Assembly (NCBI GenBank): GCA_000004695.1
Contig: CM000152.2
Span: forward strand, 3,072,001 to 3,136,000
DNA length: 64,000 nt
Reading direction: 5' to 3'
Source of the DNA: Dictyostelium discoideum
Lineage: Eukaryota
The notes below the pieces were generated by a model. That model was not told the DNA's origin. It worked only from the letters and a program-made list of their open reading frames with translations, and searched no databases. A program made the translations under genes and the position numbers. Within the stretch, counting starts at the first letter, position 1. Each line of letters opens with the position of its first letter. Shown here in pieces: positions 12,352 to 62,378 of this stretch.

Positions 12352-14922
<2,571 letters not shown>

Positions 14923-26952: not shown

Positions 26953-27614
26953 ATTATAATAATAAAAAATAATAATAAAAAAATAAAAAATAATAAAAAT
27001 AATAAATTAATTATTTGTAAAAATCCAAATAAATAATATTTATTTTTTTTTATTTTATTTTTTTTATTTTTTTTTATGTGAACATCTATGTAAAAAAAAA
27101 AAACAAAAAAGGGGTTACCAAATTTTATTAAAATATCAAAATTTTTATGAAAACACTAACTCCTTATTTTATTATTTTTTGTTTTTTTTTCAAAACAGTT
27201 GGACAATTCAATGTAAAACTAAATTATAAGGATTGTTTGGAAGAAAATAAATATTTATAATCATTTAAATGTTTTTTTGTTGTATTAAAAATTAAATATA
27301 TTTTTATAATAATAATCTGGCAAATAATTAATATCCAAAAAAAAAAAACTACTGAATCCATTCTTTATGATATCCATTCACAAAAAGAAATTTCAGCAAT
27401 TACCAAAAGGGGTAGATTTATAAAAAAAAAAAACAATAATTAAGATTAAAAAAAAAAGATAAATACAATAATATTATTTTTATATAATTGTATATTTTAA
27501 ATTATTAAAAATAGTTTTTATATTTTTATTTTAGTATAGAGTTATATGTTTAAAAAAAAAAAATTTTATTTTTGTGAATCTTTTTTTTTTGATCGAGAAA
27601 AAAAAAAAAATTAA

Positions 27615-28367
27615 TTAAAATGGTAAATTTCCAAGAACTTTTGGTAATTGGATTGGTGATGATTTTAATTTTAATTGTTTTGAATTTGGTTGATTTAAAC
27701 AAATACTTGGTAATTGAAAGTATGAAGAATCGGCTGATGGGCTGTAGTAGTAATAGTTTGTTAATGTATATCCACTTGGTGTATTGTTGATATTTTCAGT
27801 TGAGCCAGAGATTAAAGAACAATCTGATTTATCTACAAGGAGGCCAACATTTGAAGAGTTACCTAAATCACCTGGGTTTACAGAAAACATGTCACATTGG
27901 ACAGTACCGATTTCGAAATCACCAACATACTTTAAACCATCAAGTGGTGGAACAGAGTATGATAATGGTTGTTGGAAACAATAGTCAGTGTCATTTACAT
28001 TAACACTAACGTATTGAGTGCTATTACTACCGAAACCCCAGAGACTACCTTTTGTTTTAGTATTACCATTATCGAATAAAAAGTCAACATACAATTGTTC
28101 ACCAACCAAATCGATATTAATAAAACCAGATTCAAGGAAAGATGATTGTTGAATACCACTGGGAGTTGGATAATTTCCATTGAAACTTAACATAACATAT
28201 GAACTTGCATAACTAGATGGGAGTTGGTTACTTGAAGTAAAACATTGTTGTTGGCCTACTTGATTTTCAATTTTTGAGTAATCAATTTTATTTGTACCCA
28301 TACTAAATGACTTACAACAATTTAATGCAATTGTCATTACTAAAATTAATGATAATAATAATTTCAT
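27615..28367 (-). CDS. Secreted hypothetical protein, 250 aa, with a signal peptide and rich in Cys, Ser, Asn and Tyr.
   Basis: A single ORF with an N-terminal signal peptide (MKLLLSLILVMTIALNCC) and several N-glycosylation sequons. I recognise no homologue. Confidence 0.55.
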   Translation of the reverse strand: MKLLLSLILVMTIALNCCKSFSMGTNKIDYSKIENQVGQQQCFTSSNQLPSSYASSYVMLSFNGNYPTPSGIQQSSFLESGFINIDLVGEQLYVDFLFDNGNTKTKGSLWGFGSNSTQYVSVNVNDTDYCFQQPLSYSVPPLDGLKYVGDFEIGTVQCDMFSVNPGDLGNSSNVGLLVDKSDCSLISGSTENINNTPSGYTLTNYYYYSPSADSSYFQLPSICLNQPNSKQLKLKSSPIQLPKVLGNLPF

Positions 28368-29330
28368 ATTTTTATTTTTTTTTTTATTTTTTTTTATTTT
28401 TTTATTTATTTGTTTTATTTATTTTTAATTTTTAATTGAATAAAAAAAAAAAAAAAAATTATTATTTATACTATTTTTTTTTTTTTAGGTTTCCGACTAC
28501 ATTTTTAAAAATGAATTCAACCAATTTAATTATCCTGGATAATACATTTTTTTGCCTGGTTATGAACTTGCAAAAATTTGTTTATTTTGAATCTTCACAT
28601 TTATTTTGAAAAAATCCGATTCCATTTTTCCGAAAATTAAAATAAAAAATGTAAGGTATTTTTTTTTTATTATTAAAGGTATATTTTGGTAAAAAAGTTT
28701 ATAAAAGAATGTTAAAGAACCTATCTCAAAAAAATAATTTTTTTATTTGGATATTTTTTAAAAATAATATCTCAAAATAATTTTTTTAAAAAAAAAAACC
28801 CCAGGCCATTACATCATAATATCAACGAAAGATTTTTGACCTGGCAATAAATTTATTTTATTGTTTCTTTTTTTTAATAATAAAAAAAAAAAAAAAAAAA
28901 AAAAAAATGGAATTTTAAATGACTAATACTTTTTTTTAGTGACTTATTTGTAATTTGAGTTTTTTTAATAAGAAAAAAAAAAAAAAAAAAAAATTTATTT
29001 AAATGAAAATACTGAAAAAAAAATAAATAACAATAAAATAAAAGAAAGAAAGAAAAAACCAAAGATAAAAATTCTTTTTTTATTTAAACTAATATTAGAC
29101 TAAAAAAAAAAAAATATTGGGATTGGGAAAAAGATTTGTTTTTTTATTATATTTTTATTTTTTTTCTTTTTTTAAAATTTTTTTTTTTATAACCAGAATG
29201 CACAAAGAATTCTTGAACAATAAAATGATTATTTATAAAGATTCAATATTATTTTTATTTTTTTATTAATTTTAAAAAAAAAACAGAACAAAACAAAAAA
29301 AAACAAATATATTAACTAATATTAAATAAA

Positions 29331-30263
29331 ATGTCAAGTGTTTCAAGAAAAGTGGCAAACGTTGCCAAAGGTTATAAAACCAAAGATGGTGCAGGTGTAT
29401 CTCTTTTACGAGTTATAGGTGGACCTATCCATTCTTAATGTTGGATGCATTTAAATCAGAGAATCCAAATGATTATATTGCAGGTTTCCCATCACATCCT
29501 CATAGAGGTCAACAAACTTTAACCTATATGATTGATGGTATAATGGCACAAAGATAACAAAGGAAATAAAGGATTATTAAAACCTGGTATGGTTCAAGTT
29601 ATGAATGCTGCAAGAGGGTATGTTTTTAAATTATTATTAAAAAATAAAACAAAATACTGATAATAATTTAAAATTAAAAATATATAGCATTATTCACTCA
29701 GAAATGCCAAAACAAGTTGAAGGTAAAATGTTTGGATTTCAATTTTGGTTAAATTTAGCAGCAGTAGATAAAATGTCAGATCCATGGTATAAAGATCTTG
29801 AAAGCTAAAGAGATTCCAGAAGTTATTACAAATGATAAAAAAGTTAGAGTTGTAGCAGGTCATTATGAAGGTGTTGAAGGTATAGTTAAAGGTTTACCAG
29901 TTAATCCAATATTTTTAGATGTTAAATTATCACCAAACACTAAATTCTCTGTTGATATACCAGATTTGGATCATAATTCATTCGTTTATGTTTTTGAAGG
30001 TGAAGGTAAATTTGGTCCAGAAGGTTATGAAACAGTTGTTGGTGATCTACAAATTGGTGTTTTAGAGAATAAAGATAGTTACAATTAAAGATAATGAAAT
30101 TACTCCAAATAAATTAGATGCTGGTGAAAATGGTGTTAGATTCCTCTTTTTATCAGCAAAACCATTAAGTGAACCAATCGCCCAACATGGTCCATTCGTT
30201 ATGAATACACAAAAAGAAATTCAACAAGCTTTCTTTGATTACCAAATGGGTAGATTTAATTAA
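29331..30263 (+). pseudogene. Pirin-like (cupin) pseudogene, disabled by at least four frameshifts and premature stops, but retaining one intact 69-nt GTATGT..AG intron at 29618..29686.
   Basis: Conceptual translation across three frames recovers pirin motifs: PFLMLDAFKSENPNDYIAGFPSHPHRGQQTLTYMIDG, DNKGNKGLLKPGMVQVMNAARG-intron-IIHSEMP, PWYKDL-KAKEIPEVITNDKKVRVVAGHYEG, and C-terminal GPFVMNTQKEIQQAFFDYQMGRF. Frame breaks lie near 29425, 29550, 29800 and 30075. Each shift is a 1-2 nt indel relative to the expected reading. Confidence 0.75.
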
Positions 30264-30841
30264 AATCAATATTAAAAAAAAATAATAATAAAAAGATTAA
30301 AAAAAAAATTGTACTATAATTAATGTAAAGTGGTTATTAAATTATTAACCAAGCACCAATTAAACAGAAATTATGCTGTTGAATTAGAAAATTAAAAAAA
30401 AAATATATATAAATAAATAAAATCTTCTAAATTAAACTTATGATTGATATATTATTGTAGATATAATAAATTTTTTTTTTTTTTTATTTTTTTTTTGTTT
30501 GTTATATTACAAATCCATATCCATATCTGGTGTAATGTCAATGCTATTATGTTTTTTTTATATGAAAAATGTCTAAGAGGTCATAGTCTATGGCTTTGTA
30601 TTTTCAATGAAATCCCAAACCAATGTAGTCTATGTTAACTTCATGGTCTTTTTTCTTATTGGAAGGTATGATTGGTATGAATTTGTTTATTGATTTTAAT
30701 TCTTTTGTGTGACCAATTCGTGTTTCCGCATGTTTATTTGATGATGGGCCCTTAAAATTTGGAAGTATTAACATAGGATTTGGTTTGGAACAATGTTCCA
30801 AAAAATAAAATAAATTTCCAAATCAAACCTTGATTATCAAT

Positions 30842-30852
30842 GACATCGAACC
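30842..30852 (-). promoter_or_regulatory. External B box (exB), GGTTCGATGTC, about 31 nt downstream of the tRNA-Arg 3' end.
   Basis: Dictyostelium tRNA genes commonly carry an extra B-box copy (consensus GGTTCGAATCC) a few tens of bp downstream. Here GGTTCGA matches exactly. Confidence 0.5.
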
Positions 30853-30883
30853 AGCGATCTTATTGTACAAGATATTAAAATTT

Positions 30884-30956
30884 CACCCATTGTGGGTCTC
30901 GATCCCACGACCTGCAGCTTAGAAGGCTGCCGCAATTCCAACTTTGCTAAACGGGC
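30884..30956 (-). tRNA. tRNA-Arg, anticodon UCU, 73 nt, no intron and no encoded CCA.
   Basis: The minus-strand cloverleaf is GCCCGTT-TA-GCAA-AGTTGGAA-TTGC-G-GCAGC-CTTCTAA-GCTGC-AGGTC-GTGGG-ATCGAGA-CCCAC-AATGGGT-G. The A box (TAGCAAAGTTGG) is good and the anticodon loop is canonical (U33, TCT, A37). Two features are atypical. The acceptor stem has two G·U pairs (1-72 and 5-68). The T-loop is ATCGAGA (A54, A60) rather than TTCGAAT. Confidence 0.7.
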
Positions 30957-31536
30957 TTTGTTGGAAAGTTATTTTTAATGCATCAAAAAATTAGGGTATT
31001 TTCCAATTAAAAAAAAAGTATTTTAATTAAAAAAGTGAACTATCAATTATTCAACCTATGGGAGGAGATCCGTTTAAAAGGTATTGATAATACTGGCAGT
31101 GGCTTGGACGCTATCAGGTTTTAAACGAAAAGCTTGAACCTTAATTTTGTCACAAACACTACAAGAGATTGCCATATATTTCTCAAATCAAATGGATAGA
31201 AGTTTACAGAAGTTTTCAATCCTCACCAATTTCAGTGGCTTTTGAATTTGGTAAATTTTTATTAATATTTGGATTTTTAAAAAAAAAAACGAAATTATCC
31301 AGATTTTAAAATTAAAAAAAAACAATAAAAAAATAAAGAAAAAAGGTAATAACTATTTAATTTAAATTTTTTGTTTTTTGTTCCCATTCGAATTCTTAAG
31401 TAAAGAAATTTCTTATTAATATTATTTAAAAAAAAAAAGTTAACTGAAAACAAGTTGGAGAATATTGTCAAAATCGAGTTTGCAGAGGTGTTGGTGAAAA
31501 CTTTCATTCAAGAACATTTTGTTCAAATTATTAAAT

Positions 31537-31619
31537 ATTCATTCATTCATTCATTCATTCATTCATTCATTCATTCATTCATTCATTCATTCATTCATTC
31601 ATTCATTCATTCATTCATT
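31537..31619. repeat. (ATTC)~21 tetranucleotide microsatellite.
   Basis: Read directly. It lies at the distal end of the GC-moderate, non-genic block upstream of the tRNA. Confidence 0.95.
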
Positions 31620-31911
31620 ATCTATTGATAACTAGATCTGATAAAAAAAAATCTTAATAAAATAATAGTTTTGATTAAAAACCTTTTTTATTTTATTTTT
31701 TTTTTTCTACATTGGACACTTAAATAAATTCGTATTTTTATTTTATTTTATATATAAAAATTAATTAATTTTGTAATAAAAAGAATTATTTAGTTTGAAG
31801 ATAATTTTTTTTTTTTTTTTTTTTTTTACCAAAATTTAATAAATAAACTAACTTTTTGTTTTTTTTTTTTTTTAAAAATTTTTTAATAAAGATTTTTTTT
31901 TTTTTTTTTTT

Positions 31912-33144
31912 TTATTGTTGAGCACAAGAAACACCTTGTGGATGACCACCATGTTGATCTTCATCATCGTCATCGTAAGCAGAGGATCTACTATGTGAAT
32001 GTTGTTTAGTATCGAAATCATGTAAAACGGCCTCTTCATCGATGCCATCGTGGGAAACTGGTTTTTGAACTGGTTTTGGTTTTGGAAGTATTTTCTCCAA
32101 GAGCTTAGCGTTTTCGGGTGTGATTTGACCAGAGGTTGGGAAAACGACATTGAATTTGATAAAGAGTCTACCCTTTTCAAAAGGTCTCTTGTAACCTGGC
32201 ATACCTTCGTTATAAATACATTTGATATCACCTTGTTTGATGATTTGAGTTGGTGGATTCTTTACGGTGATGACACGACCATCCAAATGGGTGATGTAAA
32301 AGGTGAAACCTGTCAAAGCCTCTAAAAGGGTCAACTCATGCTCCATGACGAGATCGTCGCCATCACGTTGGAATACTGGATGCTCCTTTTGAACGAGTAC
32401 AACGATGACGTCACCTGGTACGATATCAGGTGATTCGTAATCACCTTCCTCTGGGAAAACGATCTTTTGACCGTGTTTCATACCCTTGTCAATGTTTACT
32501 TCGAGTGTTTTCTTCTCTTGAATGGTTTTGTTACCTTTACATTTTGGACATCTATCTTTCTCACGGATAACATTGCCCTCACCTTTGCAAGATGGACATT
32601 GTGATTGTAACTTTTGGACCATACCTGGACCGATTTGTCTATGAATAACCTTGAAACCTTGACCATGACAATCGTCACATTTCTTTACACCATCCTTGCT
32701 TGTTGAACCTTTACCTGCGCAATCTGGACATTTGCTACTCTTTTGTAAGGCGAGTTTTTGAACTTTACCCTTGTATAAATCCTCGAGTGTAACTTTAAGA
32801 TTATGTTGGAGTGGTTCTCCTTTTCTTGGTCCACGTCTACCACCACGTCCTCCAAATCCTCCAAATCCACCACCACCAAAGAATTGTGAAAAGATATCAT
32901 CTGGTGAAAATCCTGCTCCACCTTCTTTCAAACCTTCTTCACCATATTTATCATAAAGTTCTCTCTTTTCAGTATCAGATAAAACTTCATATGCAACTGT
33001 AAGTTCTTTAAACTAAATTTTAAAAATAAAAAAAATTAGTAAAATAATAAATAAATATAAATATAATAATAAATATAATATTATTATTATATATATAATG
33101 TGTTGTGGGAATAAATTTGAATTTGAAATTTCAAATTCTAAACT

Positions 33145-37724: not shown

Positions 37725-42793
<5,069 letters not shown>

Positions 42794-55128: not shown

Positions 55129-55256
55129 AAAAATGAAAAAAAAAAAAAAAAAAAAAATGAAAAAAAAACAGTGCATCGTCACCTTTTATTTTTAAAATAA
55201 AATGAAGCCCATCAGATGGAGTTCGATTTTTTCTAAAATTTTTTTTTTTTTATTTT

Positions 55257-55412
55257 CCCAAAACTTTAAAGGGAATAAAAAAATATTGTGTGACGATGCA
55301 AATTGATTAATGTAAAAATCAAAAGTTTTGATGCATTGTTTTAAATTTACAGGGTTTTTTTTTTTTTTTTTTTTTTTTTCTTTTTTCTTTCCTTTCTATT
55401 GATGTTTATATT
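55257..55412 (+). repeat. Copy A of a ~160-bp direct repeat. The core is CAAAACTTTAAAGGGAAT...ATATTGTGTGACGATGCAAATTGATTAAT...TCAAAAGTTTTGATG...TTTAAATTTACAGG, then a long T-run, then TTCTTTCTATTGATGTTTATATT.
   Basis: About 95% identical to copy B over the core. Each copy ends in a long T-run (T>=13). An 11-bp inverted match to GTGACGATGCA (TGCATCGTCAC) lies about 115 bp upstream at 55171..55181. Confidence 0.7.
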
Positions 55413-55484
55413 GGAAGGGTTCAATTTTTTTATTTTTTTTTTTTTATTTTATTTTTTTATTTTATTTTATTTTTGTTTTGTTTT

Positions 55485-55642
55485 CTCAAAACTTTAAAGG
55501 GAATTAAAAAATATTGTGTGACGATGCAAATTGATTAATATAAAATCAAAAGTTTTGATGTATTGTTTTAAATTTACAGGTTTTTTTTTTTTTCATTTTT
55601 TTTTTCATTTTTCTTTTTTTTCTTTCTATTGATGTTTATATT
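55485..55642 (+). repeat. Copy B of the same ~160-bp direct repeat, about 228 bp downstream of copy A.
   Basis: Aligned by eye to copy A, with a handful of substitutions (GGGAATT/GGGAATA, AATGT/AATAT, GATGC/GATGT). Both copies sit between the grp94 start (55046) and the vps55-like stop (55670). Confidence 0.7.
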
Positions 55643-55669
55643 ATTATTAATTGTTTTTTTTTTTTTTTT

Positions 55670-56180
55670 TTACCAATTATTGTCTTCATCATTATGTCTA
55701 TTAAAGAACCAAAGGAATGTAATAATTGTTGCATAAACTGTAACACCGCCTGCCATTGAAAATGCAAGTGCTTTTCCTGAAATCTGGAAATTTTTTTTAA
55801 AAAAAAAAATACGATTAGTTATTCATTCTTTTAACATATATATTTAAAATTATATTTAAATAAACCTACAATATCTGAATGGGCTAAAATCATTGGAATT
55901 GCAAATCCAGATGTAATAAATAGACCTGTTAAAAATAACCCAATATCTTCAAATGTTCTGTTTAGTTGTATTTTTTTAAAAAAAAAAAAAGAATGAGTAA
56001 TTAATTAATTGGAATTTTTAAAAAAAAAATAAAAAAATAAAAAAAGAACAAAATAATTAATAAATAATACAAACCCTTTTTCACTTGAAAAACTATCTCT
56101 ATTTCTACATAATATATTTGGGAACGGAGCAAGAAAATATGATGCAACTTTTTTTTTTTTTTTTTTTAAAACAAATTAGT

Positions 56181-59389: not shown

Positions 59390-59482
<93 letters not shown>

Positions 59483-62378
59483 TGATAATTCAATATTATT
59501 ATTATTATTATTATTATAAATATCATAAAGTGGTTTTAATTGATCTTGATTTAATAATGAAGTTGATGAAGAAGTTAATGAAGTTGAAGTTGAAGAAGTT
59601 GAAGAAGGTGAAGAAGTTATTGAACCAAATAAATCCAATTTTAAAGGTGATGGGAATTTTGAATATTCTTTTAATGTTGAATTATGTTGTGATGGATATG
59701 AAACTGATTGATAACTACTATAATGTGAAGATTTAATTGAGGATGGATTTGAAGATTGAATTATATTTACACTGAATGGATCAATTAAACCCAATGCTAG
59801 AGGTATTTGTGATTGATATTGTTGTTGTAATTCATCGATGGTTAATTTTTGATATCTTTTTGAATGCACAAGATAATCGAATAAATTCTTTGTTGGCCAA
59901 CTATGTTGTTCTAAAAAGTAAATGAATGCTTGAGTTTTAATAAACATTGAAATGAATGGTCTTGACGCAACAGCTTTTGATTTAATATATTCTTCATTAT
60001 TAAAAATTGGTACAGGTTGAGGGAAAACTCTTAAATATTTATAATATTTTCTATAATCATGTAATAAATTACAAAAATATTGTAAAAATGAAAATCTAAT
60101 ATGTTGATCAGGATTTGATGATATTGTTGGTAATGGTGGTATTGGTTGACTATTTGTTGTTGAATTACGTGATGAAGAATTTGAAGTTGTTGTTGAAGTT
60201 GTTGTTGTTGAAGATCTTTTATTACTAATTGAATCATTTGAGTTATTATTATTATTATTATTACTTGTTTTAATTGATGATAATGTATTTGGATTAAAAT
60301 TTGGTAAATCTGATGATAAAATTTCAAATTGTACAACTTTTTTTAATTGATTAATTAGTATTTGAGTTTCTTTTTCAGGTAATTGAATATCTTTTGTAGA
60401 GGTTGGAATATTGATTGAATTATTATCTAAATCGACTATTACCAATTCGTTTAATAGATCTTCTTTTGAAAGGATACGATCAGCATATGATCTATGAATG
60501 CCCATTATGAATGGGAACGGTGTACTACCCGCAATGTCAACTAAAACCTCTGGTAATACAGGTACATAGATATGAGTATACACTAATGGATGAATTAATG
60601 TTGTAATGATTTCGCAAATATAAGTTAAAAGAGTATACTGTGATGAAATGATTAAAATCTTTTCTTCCAATAATAAACACTTTATCAATGAAAGTACATT
60701 TCTAATATCCAAACTAAGGAATAACATTCTATAGGAGATGTCAGGTTCTGGTAATAAACATGGATCTGGTTGCTTCAATAAACATTGATTTAATCCACCC
60801 AAACTAAAGGTAACTGGATTCTTTCCTGGTCTTGGTAATTGAATTTCACTAACTAAATTGAATATATATCTTTCAATTGGAATTGGTGATGGATTATGAA
60901 ATACTCTATGATAAATTTCATTCAATGCAACTCTAAATGAACTAAAAAATGGAAAATGTGATAAAACACAAATACATTTTGGTGCATATAATTTAATTGG
61001 AAAATCATCAATTATTGTTGTTGTTATTGTTGTTGAAGAATTTGTTGAATTATTATTATTTGTTGTATTAGTTGTAGTAGTAGTTGTATTGGTTACATTA
61101 GTAGTATTTGAATTAGAATCTTGTGGCGAAGAAGAAGAAGAAGAAGAAGATGTTGTTGTTGTTACTGCTGCTGTTGGAATTGTAGTTGTTTGAGAATTTC
61201 CAATAGTTGGTGAGGAATTTGAAGAAGATGAAGAAATTGTTGGTGAAATTGCAGTTACATTTGCTTCAGAAATTGTTGAATCTCTTATTAATGACTCAAT
61301 ATCTTTTTCTTTAACATCATTATTTTGTTCATTATTATTATTACTATTATTATTATTATTATTTAAATTACTATTATTTAAATTATTATTATTATTTAAA
61401 ATTAAATTATTAAAATTTTTAGAATCTAAAGTTTCTTTATGTAATTCTTGATAAATTGAATCATTAATTTGTTCATAAAAAGTTAAACAAGAGGCATAAA
61501 AACGTTGACCAGTTTCATTTGTTAAAACAAAAGGAAAGAATGATGGTTGTGGTTGTTCAGTTTTAAAATTAATACCACGTGGAAAACAATACATCCAAAT
61601 ATGTTTTGGTAGAATACCTTCTTTAATTAAATCTTTTTCTTCTTTGTGAGGGTAGTAATCTAAAAGTTCACCTTTATAAGATTTCTCCAATGGTAATGGT
61701 AGAATTGTGGTTGTAGTATTACCCGATGTACCTCTATGACTATTATGAAATTGTTGTTCATTCAATTGATCCAATGGGTCAAGATTTTTAGTTGATGATA
61801 AACCACAAACAAAGAAATAATCAATCGGTCTATCTGGTACATACTTTTTCTCTCTTTCTAATTTCTTTTTCTCTTCTTTCTCTCTTTTACGTGCCTCCCT
61901 TCTTTCAGCTTCAATCTTTTTATGAATTTCCTCTTGTTCCAATTGTCTTAATTTTTCACGTGCCATAGCTTTCTCTTTTTCAATTCTTTCCGATTCTTGT
62001 TCTTTTGCTAATTGTTCCTCTATTATTTTTCTTTCTTGTTCTTTTCTTGCTTTTTCAATTGCTATTGAATCTTTATTATTAGTTATTAAAAATGATGAAC
62101 CTGAATTATTTCCTGTAGAATTTGTTGTATTGGTTGTTTGTACATTTGGTGAACCTGCTATTGATGCTGTAGTTGTTGTTGTTGTTGTTGTTGTTGTCGT
62201 TGTAGTTGTTGCTATATTATTTTGTGTTATAGGTGATGGTGGTGCTGTTGTTACTGTTGATGATTGTGATGAAATTGATTGTGAATGTAGTGGTGGTGTT
62301 GTTGGTTCTGATTGATTACCCGCTATATTATTATGATCACTATTACTTGGTGTAATATTACAACTATTACTATTATTA

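Follow-up and report, generated by a model that had tools for sequence, protein, structure and literature searches.

The pirin-like sequence at positions 29331-30263 (+) of the window, the 64,000-nucleotide stretch of Dictyostelium discoideum DNA analyzed here (contig CM000152.2, positions 3,072,001 to 3,136,000), is very probably (at roughly 0.92) an unprocessed pseudogene without function, derived from an intact Dictyostelium pirin gene and lost in a lineage-specific manner. Pirins bind metal, consist of two cupin domains, and belong to the pirin / quercetin-2,3-dioxygenase-like family. Conceptual translation of this interval gives a pirin-like reading of full length, but one that is spread over three forward frames: it passes from F0 to F2 near 29426, returns to F0 near 29546, enters F1 across an intron, and within the second exon moves to F2 near 29800 and to F0 near 30078. 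The conceptually repaired product is 290 amino acids long, as compared to 295 amino acids for the ancestral protein, which was encoded by two exons. Both the N- and C-terminal cupin domains that define the family are recognized in the repaired reading, Pirin (PF02678) with an E-value of 5.3e-30 and 104 bits (cutoff 26.1) and Pirin_C (PF05726) with an E-value of 2.6e-21 and 76.4 bits (cutoff 27). These matches, together with homologue searches, bear out the full-length pirin homologue described in the initial annotation, which was made from the DNA letters alone. A translatable full-length open reading frame, as expected of a functional member of the family, is absent, the reading being interrupted by five frame-changing indels.

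In a search of a large protein database with the repaired reading, the closest relatives were all from Dictyostelium. Intact 295-residue pirins were found in D. discoideum, D. dimigraforme, D. citrinum, and D. firmibasis at about 90-95% identity; identity to the intact pirins is 90-91% overall and 94-95% when indel columns are ignored. Beyond Dictyostelia and other Amoebozoa (Planoprotostelium, Physarum), the best matches are bacterial, at ∼48-51% identity (SAR324, Myxococcales), and are annotated as 'YhaK / quercetin 2,3-dioxygenase'; they outscore the human pirin chains obtained from a separate PDB search. Human pirin (PDB 1J1L, 4HLT, and others) belongs to the same bicupin family and matches the intact Dictyostelium orthologue with an E-value of 6.5e-53. 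Its HxH...HxE motif, whose metal ligands are His56/His58/His101/Glu103 (PDB 1J1L), aligns with H62, H64, H106, and E108 of the Dictyostelium protein. By way of this intact orthologue the N-terminal cupin ligand motif can be located in the window copy, where the HPH codons remain at 29495-29503 and those for the H and E of IIHSE at 29695-29703, consistent with the metal-site motifs reported earlier. All four surviving ligand codons lie in frames that differ from that of the start codon. Sequence identity between human pirin and the window copy is only distant, and a protein of the human pirin fold cannot be produced from the window copy.

Exon 1 (29331-29617, +) was delimited by translation and orthologue alignment; it covers ancestral codons 1-103, ends with the first two bases of Gly103, and carries the Pirin domain. 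Exon 2 (29688-30263, +) covers ancestral codons 103-295 plus a shifted stop, contains the IIHSE codons at 29689-29703, and carries Pirin_C. Between them lies a retained spliceosomal intron (29618-29687, +; GTATGT...ATATAG, phase 2, 9% GC) that splits the glycine codon as GG|C. The clean GTATGT..AG intron of the initial annotation is thus retained at a conserved position, although its length is 70 nt and not the 69 nt given there. The same phase-2 intron site is used in the syntenic loci L002 and L005 (introduced below), in copy A of the cluster L003, and in L004, and the introns of the relatives measure 75, 75, 88, and 68 nt; the position is conserved in every orthologue and paralogue compared. 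The window as a whole has a GC content of ∼22%, and long runs of poly-A/T occur in its intergenic DNA. A tblastn search detected no second pirin copy within the 64 kb, and an Rfam scan of 27000-32000 together with the list of open reading frames identified no sizeable reading frame or known RNA family overlapping the pseudogene on either strand. A literature search on pirin in Dictyostelium returned nothing concerning this locus; a 'pirin-like protein' (DDB0219410) appears in a microarray table of one Dictyostelium paper.

Lesions were called by aligning the window DNA to the intact genes of three, and then five, loci. Six were identified, five frame-changing indels and one in-frame deletion, and all are private to the window copy. 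The first is a 19-bp deletion (ATCCCATCAAAATCAGTGG) at 29426-29430 (+; junction 29426|29427) with a 4-bp ATCC direct repeat at its borders. It takes out IPSKSVD, and with it the Asp of the conserved DPF motif, and shifts the frame from F0 to F2, with a first in-frame stop at TAA 29436-29438; the deleted sequence is kept in L002, L005, and cluster copies A, B, and C, and is missing only in the window. The second lesion (29545-29547, at ∼29546, +) removes the GA of ATG-GAG-CAC at codon Glu79 and shifts F2 to F0. The possibility that the -19 and -2 deletions jointly compensate by restoring the frame was rejected, since the stop at 29436-29438 falls inside the out-of-frame stretch. The third lesion (29797-29807, +) is a complex cluster in which ATATTCCAGCTG has become CTTGAAAGCTA by the changes A>C, CC>GAA (net +1 base), and G>A; it shifts F1 to F2, and the incoming frame stops at TAA 29806-29808. 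The fourth (30076-30079, at ∼30078, +) is a 2-bp deletion of one AG of GATAGAGTT at codon Arg233, shifting F2 to F0. Orthologue alignment revealed the fifth, an in-frame 6-bp deletion of GTCGCA at 30122|30123 (+) that removes Val-Ala 248-249. The sixth (30255-30263, +) is a 1-bp deletion in a T4 run (30255-30257) that changes AGA TTT TAA to AGA TTT AAT TAA, so that the ancestral TAA is destroyed and a new stop lies one codon downstream, at 30261-30263. The initial annotation had counted four frame corrections; all four sites were recovered, but the frame-changing lesion at the 3' end and the in-frame deletion come in addition, and the first of the four is a loss of 19 bp rather than a slip of one base. 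Translation from the native ATG stops after 35 codons, the longest product from this start, and therefore no bicupin can be made. We infer that the dead copy retains no residual function.

The pseudogene belongs to a duplicated gene pair. Upstream of it lies an intact ependymin-like gene of 250 amino acids (27615-28367, -), which is arranged head-to-head with the pirin copy and for which Pfam Ependymin_amoebozoa is matched in the orthologous loci. The two are separated by an AT-rich divergent intergenic region of ∼960 bp (28368-29330) that is presumed to act as a bidirectional promoter; it is co-linear with its counterpart in L002 and L005 and, in the cluster described below, was duplicated along with both genes. 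The head-to-head pair of ependymin-like gene (-) and pirin (+) constitutes the duplication unit and is found at no fewer than three sites on one chromosome. The initial annotation had called for a search for the intact paralogue, and intact copies were found on the same chromosome at ∼3.76 and ∼4.15 Mb. At ∼3.76 Mb (L007, CM142509.1) there are two more cassettes, with pirins of 283 and 295 amino acids, the latter identical to AX4 XP_641148.1. The cluster at ∼4.15 Mb (L003, CM142509.1) holds one intact pirin (P0141), which differs by 1 amino acid from AX4 XP_640827.1, together with five ependymin-like genes and two broken pirin copies; Beta_elim_lyase gene fragments are also present there. In the comparisons, the P0141/P0016 locus stood in for the near-identical AX4 locus of P0002 (XP_640827.1). 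The AX4 pirins XP_641148.1 (Q54UY3, P0122) and XP_640827.1 (Q54UE9, P0002) are same-chromosome paralogues, 94% identical to the repaired reading, and each stands head-to-head with an ependymin-like gene, as does the window copy. They differ from it in being intact and in lying within tandem cassette arrays ∼0.6 and ∼1 Mb away.

The two broken cluster copies have decayed along other routes. Copy B carries a nonsense codon at position 9 and an internal deletion of ∼310 nt, and copy C carries three small frameshifts and a large deletion. In the alignment, no lesion was common to the window copy and copies B or C. The frame break of copy C near codon 33 was considered as a shared form of the 19-bp deletion and rejected, as copy C has a 1-bp deletion there. 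Given the independent decay of copies B, C, and the window copy, together with repeated duplication, the family turns over by birth-and-death.

Substitutions were assigned to branches with two outgroups, the cluster paralogue and the gene of D. dimigraforme. D. dimigraforme P0003 had been considered as a syntenic orthologue; it adjoins a Beta_elim_lyase gene, like the 4.15-Mb cluster, and was for this reason rejected and used as an outgroup only. The window branch has acquired 16 private substitutions, 10 non-synonymous and 6 synonymous, as compared to 2 on the stem common to the two intact orthologues. In relative-rate (Tajima-type) comparisons with the cluster paralogue as outgroup, the window copy has the excess of changes against both L005 (19:4, p=0.002) and L002 (20:8, p=0.02-0.04); with D. 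dimigraforme as outgroup, the counts are 16:6 against L005 (p=0.03-0.05) and 16:11 against L002, the last not significant. Gene conversion may homogenize the intact copies in the family of the outgroup paralogue and could inflate this rate asymmetry. Nine private amino acid replacements are found outside the complex cluster and clear of the indel junctions, R173P, F196L, Q223L, R266S, and V270A among them, and in every case either the position is invariant among 19 close family members or the residue of the window copy is never seen in them. The dN/dS of the pseudogene branch is 0.44, a value below 1 that at these small counts does not differ significantly either from neutrality (1) or from the intact branch. 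Pairwise divergence is 3.3% for the pseudogene, 2.2-4.5% for the neighboring genes, and 3.7-10% for adjacent intergenic DNA. The 3.3% divergence and the dN/dS of 0.44 fit constraint for part of the branch followed by drift, with counts too small for a firm date. Relaxed constraint on the window copy is thus likely from these alignments, but statistically soft.

These data also bear on whether the pseudogene has been retained for a role as a non-coding transcript, for example through antisense or siRNA action on, or decoy regulation of, the paralogues to which it is at least 94% identical. Several features that persist at the locus would be in keeping with such a role: the intergenic region shared with the ependymin-like gene still lies upstream and remains co-linear with its counterpart beside the intact orthologues, the splice signals are intact, and the DNA is still ∼94-97% identical to the expressed paralogues. 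The substitution rate and indel load are, however, what neutral decay predicts, and two other copies of the family are decaying in different ways. We consider retention for such a role very improbable, and a pseudogene that decays without function the better account of the locus.

The history of the loss can be read from two isolates labelled D. discoideum, GCA_054859385.1 (L002; pirin KAM9956419.1 / P0001) and GCA_054859355.1 (L005; pirin KAM9968114.1 / P0131), both of which carry an intact 295-residue pirin at the syntenic position. Gene order and orientation are kept, comprising SepSecS, pyridoxal-dependent decarboxylase, ependymin-like (-), pirin (+), DnaJ (-), and CLASP-like genes, and the DNA of both isolates is co-linear with window positions 19371-40054. 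Over 19 kb of syntenic DNA, substitution divergence between the window lineage and L002/L005 is ∼3.6%, with many indels besides; between L002 and L005 it is 1.4%. A value of 3.6% seems high within one species, a hint that the D. discoideum complex may contain deep lineages. The two syntenic pirins share with the window copy their neighborhood, orientation, two-exon structure, and intron position, with ∼97% exon nucleotide identity and 94-95% amino acid identity to the repaired reading. They differ in having an uninterrupted open reading frame of 295 codons, whereas the window copy has its six lesions and at least 16 private substitutions. Because an intact syntenic pirin is present in both isolates, the copy predates the lineage split, was intact, and died on the branch of the window.

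The comparison with these isolates leaves still less room for a young, dead-on-arrival duplicate, or a retrocopy, inserted here in the lineage of the window. The many duplicates of the family on this chromosome would suit such an origin, but two lineages at 3.6% divergence have the same cassette and flanking genes with the pirin intact, and the retained intron excludes a retrocopy. The initial annotation had likewise argued against a retrocopy, and its conclusion stands on the conserved intron position and the syntenic flanking genes. Its further description as a decayed genomic duplicate holds insofar as the copy is a decayed family member, but not in the sense of a redundant new copy, the locus being intact in L002 and L005. 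The comparative sequence data instead support an established family member that was lost in one lineage. In terms of pseudogene classes, the retained intron and the synteny with intact orthologues set the locus apart from processed pseudogenes; homology to a functional gene, disabling mutations, and an intron at the conserved position place it among unprocessed ones. It is not a unitary pseudogene, for although its orthologue is intact in L002 and L005, intact paralogues (P0122, P0141) lie on the same chromosome in the same lineage. Like classical unprocessed pseudogenes of birth-and-death families, the window copy has retained its intron and flanks, carries multiple frameshifts, has functional paralogues nearby, and displays a substitution pattern that appears accelerated and largely unconstrained. 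Unlike a classical extra copy that was never functional, it occupies a locus that still functions in sister lineages.

The annotation of GCA_054883475.1 represents the locus as a 234-residue 'hypothetical protein', KAM9949668.1 (P0015, ACTFIT_010888; L001:10001-10933, corresponding to window 29331-30263), which is the only database protein deriving from it. This model contains extra 'introns' at 29397-29461, 29540-29573, 29764-29794, and 30038-30065 (+) of 65, 34, 31, and 28 nt. A functional gene in which four additional short introns bypass the frame breaks would account for such a model, which was produced by automated annotation and keeps its Pfam Pirin and Pirin_C matches. The extra introns, however, have a coding-like GC content of 29-36%, as compared to 9% for the genuine 70-nt intron, and in the intact orthologues the same stretches belong to uninterrupted coding sequence and encode conserved residues (VSLLRVIGGPIPSKSVDPFLMLDAFKSE, IMEHKDNKGNKG, VDKMSDPWYKD, VGDQQIGVLENKD). 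Their excision would remove core strands of both cupin barrels. A gene rescued in this way is harder to credit than even a young duplicate, and the KAM9949668.1 model is regarded as an annotation artefact.

All 933 bp of the pseudogene are identical in GCA_054883475.1, an independent chromosome-level assembly (CM142509.1, ∼3.17 Mb), and across 21 kb of flanking DNA that assembly shows 5 mismatches and 19 gap openings relative to the window. At the level of assemblies the lesions are thus real, and because of this identity a sequencing slip is excluded, in agreement with the initial annotation. GCA_054883475.1 may stem from the same laboratory lineage, in which case the comparison rules out assembly error and is not informative on the natural spread of the dead allele. 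The least credible reading, a functional gene whose frameshifts are sequencing or assembly errors, could draw on the extreme AT-richness and homopolymer-error-prone nature of Dictyostelium DNA and on lesion 6, which is of that type, but most of the lesions (the 19-bp, 6-bp, and 2-bp deletions and the multi-base complex change) fall outside homopolymers, the independent assembly agrees throughout despite its differing flanks, and, quite apart from the indels, non-synonymous changes are in excess at residues that are invariant elsewhere.

A course of events leading to the present pseudogene can be proposed. The ancestral two-exon, 295-residue pirin would have stood head-to-head with the ependymin-like gene, between the pyridoxal-dependent decarboxylase and DnaJ genes. 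Constraint would have been lost in the AX4-type D. discoideum lineage after its split from the lineage of GCA_054859385.1 and GCA_054859355.1. This loss was likely tolerated through redundancy, with several intact paralogues of at least 94% identity on the same chromosome. The copy would then have gained its indels, apparently by slippage or microhomology-type events, along with the excess of substitutions.

Several other features of the window were recorded. A tRNA-Arg(TCT) gene lies ∼620 bp downstream of the pseudogene at 30884-30956 (-) (Rfam, 59 bits; ARAGORN). The ∼150 bp around it (30842-30991) align at 91% with syntenic L002, and the ∼400-bp interval between pseudogene and tRNA gives no alignment between the lineages. 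Trinucleotide arrays are present at 13275-13522 ((TTA)83), 40017-40165 ((ATT)50), and 59390-59517 ((ATT)43) and cross-match similar arrays in related loci; they probably either encode poly-Asn or a similar homopolymer on the opposite strand or are simple repeats between genes. At 55238-55672 there is a tandem duplication with a 228-bp unit in 1.9 copies that are 87% identical.

A broader interpretation, which we regard as possible but rather unlikely, is that the head-to-head ependymin-like/pirin pair is a co-regulated two-gene module whose copies are gained and lost together in the D. discoideum complex, with no fewer than three sites on one chromosome and with lineage-specific losses, or that a transcript of the dead copy regulates the 94-97% identical paralogues. 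Were the module reading true, it would imply that the secreted ependymin-like proteins of Amoebozoa and the cytosolic pirins are functionally linked. As a decayed pirin gene, the window copy is nothing out of the ordinary, a familiar type of unprocessed pseudogene in a birth-and-death family, and it is biologically minor, adding another dead copy to a family that has many. It does carry a warning for annotation, as the artefactual KAM9949668.1 stands in public protein databases bearing Pirin and Pirin_C matches. For the family itself, the locus is a clean and dated case of a gene lost in one lineage from a tandemly amplified ependymin/pirin cassette family, and it could be used as a marker of neutral evolution, or of strains or lineages within the D. 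discoideum complex.
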